A stretch of 30,927 bases of DNA from the sequence record NC_049394.1; one strand, given 5' to 3'. The notes under the pieces are model-generated. The model was not told where the DNA came from, ran no database searches, and was given only the letters and a program-made list of their open reading frames with translations. The position numbers and the translations under genes were made by a program. Of the stretch, positions 27,573 to 30,927 are shown one piece after another (the stretch's first letter is position 1; each line of letters starts with the position of its first letter). This stretch comes from Escherichia phage ESSI2_ev129.

Positions 27573-27794
27573 TCAGTTAAGTACGATGTTGCAACCCGCG
27601 AGGGCGTCTATGGTCAGAGCCGCGATATTGATCATGACTTTTTCACGCCCCATATCTTTGCGAAGGCGGTGACGAGGCAAGCGGCCATCTTTCAACATCG
27701 CTTCAACGGTATCTTCTGGTAAACCAGTGAGTTCGATGTATTTCTCTTTTGAGATAGAAGGGACGGGTAGATTGATTGAAATGTTAGTGGTCAT
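27573..27794 (-). CDS. Apl/Cox-family excisionase-repressor (tentative)
   Basis: 73 aa, first gene of the leftward early operon, immediately upstream of cII and divergent from cI, as apl in 186 / cox in P2. GAGGAA Shine-Dalgarno. Confidence 0.55.
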   Translation of the reverse strand: MTTNISINLPVPSISKEKYIELTGLPEDTVEAMLKDGRLPRHRLRKDMGREKVMINIAALTIDALAGCNIVLN

Positions 27795-27929
27795 AGTGCA
27801 AGATTCCTCGTTTGGAAGTTAACCGTGGCTAGCGGTGTTAAAAGGTGAACAACCTGTTTTGGAATGTTCGCCTGCAAAATAACTTTCCAAATGCGAAGTG
27901 TCAACCAATAACTTTCCCAAGGCGGAATT
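27795..27929. promoter_or_regulatory. Immunity switch region between apl and cI, with candidate operator repeats
   Basis: 135-bp gap between divergent apl/cox-like and cI starts. Four copies of a 9-11-bp motif: TTGGAAGTT (27812-27820), TTGGAATGTT (27859-27868) and, inverted, AACTTTCCAA (27881-27890) and AACTTTCCCAA (27910-27920). Confidence 0.5.
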
Positions 27930-28550
27930 ATGGATCTCAAAAACGGAGGCCAGGCAGTTATAACCAGGCTCCTTGAAGCTTATGGATTTAAGACAAGGCA
28001 GGCTTTATGCGACCAATTGAAAGTATCAACAAGCACCATGGGAACGAGATGGATGCGTGATGTATTCCCAGCTGACTGGGTTATACAGTGCACAATCGAA
28101 ACTGGTGCATCAGTAGAATGGCTATCGTTCGGAACAGGCGAGAAATTTCCCAACGGAACCAGCAAAAACGCAAATGAGAATGAAGATTCCGCAAATGAGA
28201 ACTTGTTAGGTGATGTTGTTTCTGTTACCCGAAAAAAGGTAATAGATGGAAATTTATACGATTCTAATTTTTACATGCTCGACAAAGCCATGCTCCCATC
28301 CCACCTCAGCAAACCCATTATTATTGTGGATGATGATGTCAGCTACTTAGCCGAGCAGAAAAATGATGAATTAACAGACGGTACATGGCTTGTTGAAATT
28401 GAAGGGCAAGTGAGCATAAAAGAGCTAATACGCATTCCAGTAGGCAGGGTTCGTGTAACCTCAGTGCCTGGTAGCGCTAGTTTTGAGTGCGGTATTGATG
28501 ACTTAAAACCTATCGCAAAATGCCACTACTACCTGCTGACAGATGTTTGA
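27930..28550 (+). CDS. cI: CI-type immunity repressor (186 CI-like; no LexA-like autocleavage domain evident)
   Basis: 206 aa; N-terminal helix-turn-helix-like region (..QALCDQLKVSTSTMGTRWMRDVFPADWVIQ..); no Ala-Gly / Ser-Lys S24 peptidase motifs recognised; upstream of int on the same strand. Confidence 0.7.
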   Translation: MDLKNGGQAVITRLLEAYGFKTRQALCDQLKVSTSTMGTRWMRDVFPADWVIQCTIETGASVEWLSFGTGEKFPNGTSKNANENEDSANENLLGDVVSVTRKKVIDGNLYDSNFYMLDKAMLPSHLSKPIIIVDDDVSYLAEQKNDELTDGTWLVEIEGQVSIKELIRIPVGRVRVTSVPGSASFECGIDDLKPIAKCHYYLLTDV

Positions 28551-28627: not shown

Positions 28628-29677
28628 ATGGCTATTCGTAAACTTGAAACGGGTAAATGGCTCTGTGAATGCTACCCTTCCGGACGTTCTGGGCGCAGGG
28701 TACGAAAACAATTTGCAACCAAAGGTGAGGCAATGGCCTTTGAGCGCCACACAATGGATGAAGCCGCGTCTAAACCGTGGCTGGGGGATGTTGTTGATCG
28801 CCGCTCTTTAAAAGACATTGTAAACCTCTGGTATAAACTGCATGGCATATCTCTTACGGCTGGCGAACACGTATATGAAAAACTACTGCTGATCGTGGAC
28901 GCACTAGGAAACCCTCTGGCTACATCGCTAACCCCAAAAATGTTTGCTCATTACCGCGATAAACGCCTAACCGGAGAGATTTATTTCAGCGAAAAATGGA
29001 AGAATGGCGCTAGCCCTGTAACGGTTAATCTTGAGCAAAGTTATTTAAGCGGTGCCTTTAGTGAACTGATTCGCTTGGGCGAATGGCTTCAGCCAAACCC
29101 TCTTGAAAACATGCGAAAATTTACCATTGCTGAAAAGGAAATGGCCTGGCTGACACATGAACAGATTGCTGAACTTCTGTATGACTGCCAGCGTCAGAAC
29201 AAGCTGTTGACGCTGGTTGTGAAGATTTGCCTCAGTACAGGAGCAAGGTGGAGAGAGGCCGTCAATCTGACAAGGTCTCAGGTAACGAAGTACCGCATCA
29301 CTTTCACCAGAACGAAGGGAAAGAAAAACAGAAGCATCCCTATTAGCAAGGAGCTATATGAAGAGATCACCGTGCTGAAGGGGTTTAAGTTTTTTGATGA
29401 TTACTATTTTCAATTTGCATCAGTGATGGATAAAACTTCCATCATTCTGCCGCGAGGCCAGCTAACGCACGTTCTTCGCCACACCTTTGCTGCTCACTTT
29501 ATGATGTCCGGAGGAAACATACTCGCCCTTCAAAAAATACTGGGGCACCACGATATAAAAATGACTATGCGCTATGCCCACCTCGCGCCAGATCACCTTG
29601 AAACTGCGTTAAGGTTTAACCCCTTAGCTACTATGCAAAATGGCGACAAAATGGCGGCAGCGGTTGCCACTCCCTAA
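28628..29677 (+). CDS. int: Tyrosine integrase (P2/186 family)
   Basis: 349 aa. Catalytic signature ..HVLRHTFAAHF.. (H-x-x-R) and ..MRYAHLAPDH (Tyr) near the C-terminus; TGARWREAV region (Arg box). Confidence 0.85.
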   Translation: MAIRKLETGKWLCECYPSGRSGRRVRKQFATKGEAMAFERHTMDEAASKPWLGDVVDRRSLKDIVNLWYKLHGISLTAGEHVYEKLLLIVDALGNPLATSLTPKMFAHYRDKRLTGEIYFSEKWKNGASPVTVNLEQSYLSGAFSELIRLGEWLQPNPLENMRKFTIAEKEMAWLTHEQIAELLYDCQRQNKLLTLVVKICLSTGARWREAVNLTRSQVTKYRITFTRTKGKKNRSIPISKELYEEITVLKGFKFFDDYYFQFASVMDKTSIILPRGQLTHVLRHTFAAHFMMSGGNILALQKILGHHDIKMTMRYAHLAPDHLETALRFNPLATMQNGDKMAAAVATP

Positions 29678-29739
29678 CCTTTAATACTCCTAACTACTCT
29701 TTTAACTTATTGAGTTTAAAGCAAGTAATTGTTTTTCCT

Positions 29740-29768
29740 AACCCATTTATATAAATGGGTTTTTTGTT
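29740..29768 (+). terminator. Rho-independent terminator after int (perfect 22-bp palindrome)
   Basis: AACCCATTTAT|ATAAATGGGTT perfect inverted repeat (29740-29761) followed by TTTTTGTT. Confidence 0.6.
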
Positions 29769-29933
29769 GCCTGAATTTTTCAACCCATGAAATCAATAGA
29801 TTACACCAACCATTTCCCATGCTTGGCGACAAAGTGGCGACACAACTAAAGTCCCTCCTTCCCACAACGAAAACCATTGTCTAAAAATCGTATTGATTTA
29901 AAATCCCTTTTTTTCTTGTCAGGATGACTAATC

Positions 29934-30551
29934 ATGACTTCCTACGACCAACTTAAAGAATGTATCCGCCTTGAAGTCATCGGCCATGACAAATCCTTTT
30001 CATGGCGTAAAGCGTTACTTCGTACCCGGCGTAATCAGAAGAAGCACTTCCTGTTCTGGTGGCGCATCGCTTCATGGCTCTATGGCCAGAATAGTAAGTT
30101 CAAAAAACGCATTGCCCGCAGAATTGAAAACCGCCTCAAGTACCGGCACAGCGTTGATATTTCCCTCTCCTGCAAAATTGGCAAGGGTTTAAACATTGCT
30201 CATCTGAACGCAATTGTTATTACTGATAATTGCGTGATTGGTGATTTTGCCGACCTGAAGCAAGGCATCACCATAGGGTTACGCACAGACAGTGCCGACG
30301 CGATGATAGTCATTGGCGATCATGTTGATATTGGCTGTAACTCGTCCATTCTGGGCGGCAAGGTAACGATCGGTAATAATGTCACCATTGGGGCGCATTC
30401 ACTGGTACTTCAGAACATCCCCGACGACACCGTTTATAAAAACAAAATTATGCCGGTGTACACGTCAAAACTGCCACAGCAGGAAAATCAGCCTTTCGTC
30501 ACGGGTAATGCGACAAAGGAAGCGCCCCGTTCCGCAGAAGTAGCACTGTAA
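29934..30551 (+). CDS. Hexapeptide-repeat (left-handed beta-helix) acetyltransferase, serine-acetyltransferase/WcaB-like
   Basis: 205 aa; AGGA Shine-Dalgarno 9 nt before the ATG. Hexapeptide repeats ..ITDNCVIGDFADLKQGITIG..VIGDHVDIGCNSSILGGKVTIGNNVTIGAHSLV... Markedly AT-rich gene and flanks compared with the rest of the window. Confidence 0.7.
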   Translation: MTSYDQLKECIRLEVIGHDKSFSWRKALLRTRRNQKKHFLFWWRIASWLYGQNSKFKKRIARRIENRLKYRHSVDISLSCKIGKGLNIAHLNAIVITDNCVIGDFADLKQGITIGLRTDSADAMIVIGDHVDIGCNSSILGGKVTIGNNVTIGAHSLVLQNIPDDTVYKNKIMPVYTSKLPQQENQPFVTGNATKEAPRSAEVAL

Positions 30552-30878: not shown

Positions 30879-30927
30879 CTGTCTCTTATACACATCTGAC
30901 GCTGCCGACGATCTACTCTGTGTAGAT
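30879..30927. other. Illumina Nextera adapter read-through (library artifact)
   Basis: CTGTCTCTTATACACATCT + GACGCTGCCGACGA + TCTACTCT + GTGTAGAT; reverse complement of bases 1-43 plus six further adapter bases. Confidence 0.9.

Follow-up and report, generated by a model that had tools for sequence, protein, structure and literature searches.

Where does phage ESSI2_ev129 recombine with the chromosome of its host, and what is the function of the short repeat that lies at the 3' end of its integrase gene and recurs downstream of it? We addressed these questions in the whole genome record (NC_049394.1; 30,927 nucleotides, hereafter the window), to which all positions refer. By gene content and Pfam domains, ESSI2_ev129 is a P2/186-like phage (Peduoviridae), and it carries a CII-like gene in addition to the repressor, integrase and other features collected in Table 1. 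Both ends of the record consist of Nextera transposase adapter (1-43, ...TCGTCGGCAGCGTCAGATGTGTATAAGAGACAG, and 30880-30927, CTGTCTCTTATACACATCTGACGCTGCCGACGA...), which is untrimmed library sequence in the assembly and not phage DNA, and which gives spurious matches to many unrelated phage records. Since the adapter is found at both ends, the record is an assembly of the virion or excised form, in which an intact attP is expected.

Table 1. Features of the ESSI2_ev129 attachment region and of the genes around it (positions in the window)
Feature	Position	Strand	Details
Cox/Apl-like gene	27573-27794		73 aa, divergent; presumed recombination directionality factor (RDF)
CI-type repressor	27930-28550		Pfam Phage_CI_repr + Phage_CI_C
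int	28628..29677	+	ORF; tyrosine integrase of 349 aa, 186-type; Pfam Int_N + Phage_integrase
Int-proximal arm pair	29641..29659	+	TGGCGACA 29641-29648, TGGCGGCA 29652-29659; -114/-103 from core start
IHF-like site, proximal arm to core	29703..29715	-	TAACTTATTGAGT, reverse complement of WATCAANNNNTTR at 12/13
Hairpin	29740..29761	+	AACCCATTT-ATAT-AAATGGGTT then TTTTGTT; 9-bp stem; terminator scan
att common core	29755..29768	+	ATGGGTTTTTTGTT, 14 bp; identical to attB; last 11 nt of rybB + 3 nt
IHF-like site, distal arm	29791..29803	+	AATCAATAGATTA, 13/13 match to WATCAANNNNTTR; not conserved in ev040
Int-distal arm pair	29824..29842	+	TGGCGACA 29824-29831, TGGCGACA 29835-29842; non-coding; +69/+80 from core start
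Hexapeptide acetyltransferase moron	29934-30551		just right of the att region

The initial annotation had described a 19-25-bp element within the last int codons that recurs 180 bp downstream, with 17 of 19 matches in its core, and had proposed the two copies as candidate attP or Int arm sites. Both strings are present, ATGCAAAATGGCGACAAAATGGCGGCA at 29633-29659 (the first copy starts at 29633, not at 29634) and ATGCTTGGCGACAAAGTGGCGACA at 29819-29842. The gap-free repeat is 19 nt long, with 17 matches as claimed (TGGCGACAAAATGGCGGCA at 29641-29659 versus TGGCGACAAAGTGGCGACA at 29824-29842) and 183 bp from start to start. It is not, however, one element of 19-25 bp: each copy consists of two direct TGGCGRCA units 11 bp apart, with all four units on the plus strand, and the functional unit is a site of 8-11 bp that occurs twice per arm. 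In extended form, the four units of ev129 read AAATGGCGACA, AAATGGCGGCA, CTTGGCGACA and AAGTGGCGACA. The location within int holds, as the proximal pair occupies codons 338-344 of 349 and encodes G-D-K-M/V-A-A. An 'ATGC' prefix shared by the two longer strings can only be aligned if 3 nt are skipped, and it is not conserved among relatives; it is coincidental and lies outside the element. We also considered an inverted third arm-like copy, GTTGCCACT (29663-29671), which resembles the inverted extra copy of the 186 distal arm, and rejected it; most relatives read GGTTGGCAT at this place. The exact octamer TGGCGRCA occurs seven times in the whole genome (3.9 expected), and four of these seven occurrences are in the two pairs. 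The paired pattern TGGCGRCANNNTGGCGRCA, allowing up to one mismatch, is found at these two places only in ev129 and in none of 100 dinucleotide-preserving shuffles.

Between the two pairs lies a 14-bp block that matches the 3' end of rybB in E. coli K-12 at every position, so the expectation that the attachment site would be found in this neighbourhood was borne out. At the empty K-12 site the sequence is ...GGTTGATGGGTTTTTTGTTATCTAAAAC (in a longer reading ...GGTTGATGGGTTTTTTGTTATCTAAAACTTATC), and the annotated sRNA gene rybB ends within its T-run. Beyond the core, partial similarity to attB continues in patches for ~12 bp, to about 29780. Among 5,426 complete E. coli genomes we found no exact ev129 lysogen (the best int match was 88%), and the junctions were therefore taken from relatives. 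In E. coli 300709, ybjL and host sequence on the rybB side extend to ...GGTTCAAGGTTGATGGGTTTTTTGTT and are followed by DNA with 96.8% identity to ev129 29755-30280; on the rcdA side, ~17 kb off, the sequence after a related int gene (88% identity) is ...CCCATTTATATAAATGGGTTTTTTGTT, beyond which comes host DNA toward rcdA. Both junctions of this prophage thus change between host and phage inside the ATGGGTTTTTTGTT block. Mapping of att by comparing occupied chromosomes (the prophages of relatives) with an empty one (K-12) places the core between the repeats, and these sequence comparisons identify rybB, a host sRNA gene, as the integration target, at its 3' end. Integration would leave rybB and its terminator intact, since the final bases of this gene are also present in the core. 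If the core assignment is correct, a K-12 lysogen would be expected to have the junctions rybB...ATGGGTTTTTTGTT|GCCTGAATTTTTC and ...AAATGGGTTTTTTGTT|ATCTAAAAC.

Two other candidates in this region were discarded. A tRNA gene as the att target was ruled out by the finding of no tRNA or tmRNA gene in the ev129 genome, and the inverted repeat ATGGGTT...AACCCAT (29755-29761 and 29783-29789), considered as a pair of core-type sites, is not kept in ev040. Among the prophages, the junction in E. coli EcPF15 (L007, 2601-2640) reads ATGGGTTTTTTGTTGCCTGAAATTTATCTACTACC, with the phage-type GCCTGAA kept after the 14-bp block and host sequence thereafter, whereas the junction in L006 goes straight to host ATCTAAAA after the block. 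This would be explained by a longer, imperfect core (~27 bp) in which the point of exchange varies, or by an alteration of the host site by an earlier phage. The rybB locus, between ybjL and rcdA, is already known as a site of P2-like phages, being occupied by the 'Rybb' prophages of E. coli B, W and Crooks (PMC3032704), and it has been listed as defence-island hotspot #29 (PMC10121019).

The interval between the copies has a G+C content of 34%, compared to 51.5% genome-wide, in agreement with the AT-rich stretch noted earlier, and it does contain the palindrome that had been taken for the int terminator. That description is incomplete: the hairpin (fold -9.6 kcal/mol, z = -2.6) serves the whole lysogenic (cI-int) operon as intrinsic terminator, and with its right arm it extends into the att core. 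Sites for the host factor IHF, with consensus WATCAANNNNTTR, would also be expected in the arms of an attP of this kind. Four relatives (L007, L014, L024 and L004) have a perfect TAACTYATTGATT in place of the IHF-like site at 29703-29715, and in 186 an IHF footprint lies between arm sites and core, as this site does, suggesting that the ev129 sequence may be an IHF site. For the site in the distal arm, 29791-29803, the same assignment is made only tentatively. A further IHF-like pair, TATTGAGTTTAAA and TATTGATTTAAAA (29708-29720 and 29891-29903), shows a spacing of 183 bp, each member following an arm pair by 67 bp. The second member lies past the distal sites, shortly before the start of the acetyltransferase gene. 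The recurrence may be due to chance or be the trace of an old duplication.

To which protein do the four units belong? Two types of arm site have been distinguished, with the consensus tgccGCCActt for the 186 type and tgTGGaCa for the P2 type, and residues in the N-terminal domain of Int have been proposed as discriminators, W/E/Y versus Y/D/R (Nilsson et al., 2011; PMC3448106). In addition, the GenBank record of 186 (NC_001317) lists predicted Int arm-type sequences with the consensus YAYCGCCAYTY, three to the left and two to the right of attP. Read as reverse complements, tgccGCCActt and YAYCGCCAYTY become aagTGGCggca and RARTGGCGRTR, respectively. The ev129 units match both, and the consensus that we derived from 19 distinct sites of ev129 and its relatives, aARTGGCGRCA, differs from RARTGGCGRTR at a single position. 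The integrase points the same way. Over 339 aa it shares 54% identity with 186 Int, and within the N-terminal ~55 aa, which presumably form the arm-binding domain, it has W11/E14/Y16 as does 186 Int, compared to Y11/D14/R16 in P2 Int. The P2 integrase goes together with pairs of TGTGGACA in both arms, also with an 11-bp period, and all four were recovered in P2 as a control; the same search of ev129 29600-29935, with up to one mismatch, gave no hit on either strand, and thus the att region of ev129 does not belong to the P2 type. Taken together with the position of the core, these comparisons suggest that the four TGGCGRCA units are very probably arm-type sites for the N-terminal domain of a 186-type Int, two per arm and flanking the attP core.

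A different unit was seen in ESSI2_ev015 (L003), which has an integrase 46% identical to that of ev129, a core in the 3' end of a tRNA gene and the same acetyltransferase moron. Its layout is again two plus two with an 11-bp period (~2640-2668 and 2868-2895), one pair lying within the last int codons and the other in the distal arm, and the unit is TGYCCCCT. The residues at the discriminating positions of its Int N-terminus are W/D/Y. This phage may represent a third class of arm-site specificity beyond the two of Nilsson et al. (2011).

If the units are arm sites, both their sequence and their distance from the core would be expected to persist in related phages. Wherever a core could be recognised in a relative (14 loci in all), the proximal pair was at -114/-103. 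All four offsets, -114/-103 and +69/+80, recur in ev129, ev040, Klebsiella phage KP12 and the IMG/VR contigs L024 and L093, as well as in two E. coli prophage ends (L002 and L005). Between the core and the distal pair the DNA of ev129, ev040 and KP12 is non-homologous, but the sites themselves, and how far they lie from the core, are conserved. A few relatives deviate: in L014 a single distal site can be recognised, and the distal pair of L028 is at +34/+45. The same two-plus-two arrangement, or a larger one, is also present in the distant 186-type phages SEN1 and PHB48, whose integrases are ~54% identical. Lastly, the overlap with int allows the constraint on DNA to be separated from that on protein. 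We compared 45 distinct int 3' ends with 75-94% identity to ev129. None of the seven third-codon positions within the motif varies in this set, whereas of the 79 in the 237 nt upstream only 6 are invariant (Fisher p = 3e-7), bearing in mind that the set was anchored on the motif with up to three mismatches and is thus slightly biased toward conservation. Third positions that are frozen in the motif while their neighbours vary point to the DNA, and not the encoded peptide, as the level of constraint. Two genomes, 186 and the 300709 prophage, have an extra ORF after int; the sites are retained beyond it, where they are non-coding.

The extra ORF encodes a small glycine-rich repeat protein, of the type GPGGG-LYT... 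in 300709 (L004, 2521-3160) and of the GTYVGG type in 186 (Orf69; L013, 558-809). In 300709 it cuts off the C-terminal tail of Int, leaving the former tail codons non-coding.

Could the sites instead bind the RDF (the Cox/Apl-like protein) or CI? In this group of phages, RDF operators are direct repeats one helical turn apart within attP (PMC7498355), and the period of 11 bp observed here would fit such operators. P2-like RDFs, however, also bind between the early promoters, and there is no TGGCGRY unit in the cI/apl switch region (27795-27929) of ev129; the absence of the motif from this region argues against operators for the repressor or the excisionase. A k-mer comparison of the switch region with the proximal arm revealed no convincing set of RDF operators; a weak TAACT repeat occurs at 29691 and 29703 in the proximal arm and at 27880 and 27909 in the switch region. 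Moreover, the sites of 186 Apl are a separate set of five repeats, confined to one arm and distinct from the GGCG-type arm sites, whereas the ev129 motif is on both arms. Finally, the type of motif tracks the type of the Int N-terminus, and the ev129 RDF shows no BLAST similarity to 186 Apl even though the motif is that of 186. Binding of the RDF or CI in place of Int is therefore very unlikely.

It might also be argued that the repeat has no function at the DNA level, being a by-product of coding or the leftover of a ~183-bp duplication. The proximal copy does encode part of Int, and the second short IHF-like repeat described above is likewise spaced by 183 bp. When the motif is left out, 34% of in-register positions are identical at offset 183, compared to 26 ± 4% at other offsets, a difference of ~2 sd. 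A by-product of coding does not, however, account for a distal copy that is non-coding, for sites that lie outside int in 186 and 300709, or for synonymous positions that are all frozen in the motif when 73 of 79 vary upstream. Nor would a decaying duplication keep both the sequence and the offset of the distal sites in distal arms that are otherwise unrelated. We consider this explanation scarcely credible. Chance similarity in an AT-rich intergenic region can be dismissed as extremely improbable, since, common as two-copy short repeats are and unenriched as the single octamers are genome-wide, the pair was absent from all shuffles, is found again with offsets unchanged in many independent relatives and fits a published consensus.

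Integrase arm sites thus remain by far the best account of the repeats, as the initial annotation had suggested, with the position of the core, the match to the 186 consensus, the kept offsets and the frozen third-codon positions all pointing to it. That Int is the protein bound, and that IHF bends the DNA, would follow by analogy with the paradigm of 186, P2 and lambda. By this analogy, a heterobivalent Int would place its core-binding and catalytic domains at ATGGGTTTTTTGTT and its N-terminal domain on the arm sites, and IHF would bend the DNA at the AT-rich sites between arms and core, allowing Int to bridge the two. The resulting intasome would recombine attP with attB at the 3' end of rybB, with strand exchange taking place inside the 14-bp block common to rybB. 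Since the proximal pair is written into the last int codons, the tail of the integrase (…NGDKMAA…) would be largely a by-product of the DNA sites.

The overlap of the proximal sites with int codons raises the question of whether it has a regulatory role as well. By binding its own 3' codons, or the corresponding stretch of its mRNA, Int could regulate its own synthesis; alternatively, its binding could tie intasome formation to the point where int transcription stops, at the terminator that reaches into the core. The int gene of P2 is reportedly subject to post-transcriptional autoregulation. If the same were true here, the Int tail GDK[MV]A[AT] would be an overprinted peptide dictated by a DNA or RNA operator. 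We regard such a role as unlikely, and the frozen synonymous positions are fully explained by arm-site function alone.

The type of site, the architecture and the rybB target have all been described before, and current understanding is unchanged by our results. They do permit a precise annotation of attP, comprising the core, two pairs of arm sites, a likely IHF site and the terminator, with rybB as the target. Such an annotation could be used in calling prophage boundaries, and the Int/att pair could serve as a genetic tool. The arm sites that overlie int codons also provide a small example of constraint at the DNA level overriding codon freedom.

Among the nearest known counterparts is coliphage 186 (Eganvirus ev186), with which ev129 shares a heterobivalent tyrosine Int, AT-rich arms with IHF sites (putative ones in ev129) and RARTGGCGRYR direct pairs or triplets with an 11-bp period, located on both sides of the core and in the same orientation relative to int. 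In both phages the cI-int operon reads toward attP and the terminator of this lysogenic operon lies inside attP. Written in the direction of int, the 186 sites are AGAATGGCGATAAAGTGGCGGTAGAAATGGCGAAT on the int side and CGAGTGGCGATAGAATGGCGGTGGA on the far side. The two phages differ in their targets, the core of 186 being the 3' end of tRNA-Ile (ileY) and that of ev129 the 3' end of rybB, and in the number of sites, 186 having 3 + 2 plus one inverted copy and ev129 2 + 2. Unit position 10 is T in 186 and C in ev129, orf69 separates int from the sites in 186 whereas the proximal pair of ev129 is inside int codons, and the RDF of ev129 is unrelated in sequence to Apl. The attP of P2 is built like that of ev129: downstream of int, each arm has a direct repeat of two units with an 11-bp period, and the core lies between the arms. 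Unlike ev129, P2 uses the motif TGTGGACA (tgTGGaCa) and an Int of the Y/D/R rather than the W/E/Y type, and the two integrases are only about 39% identical.

The 'Rybb' prophages mentioned above use the same locus, and int of ev129 is matched at ~76% nucleotide identity by its counterparts in BL21, E. coli C and others. Those prophages are resident and often defective, whereas ev129 is an excised or virion form with an intact attP and a different moron, the acetyltransferase. The DNA to the right of the core is a point of cargo exchange (29773-29911, then 29934-30551), where only the two arm sites are kept across variants: ev129 has the acetyltransferase directly, ev040 an abortive-infection gene and then the acetyltransferase, and KP12 and others go straight to ogr. 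A further close relative is ESSI2_ev040 (Quadragintavirus ev040, NC_049393), whose Int protein is 100% identical and which has the same proximal arm, core and distal offsets. Its DNA is 99.7% identical up to ev129 29773 (...ATGGGTTTTTTGTTGCCTG) and unrelated beyond this point except for the arm sites, with the abortive-infection gene that precedes its acetyltransferase setting it apart from ev129.
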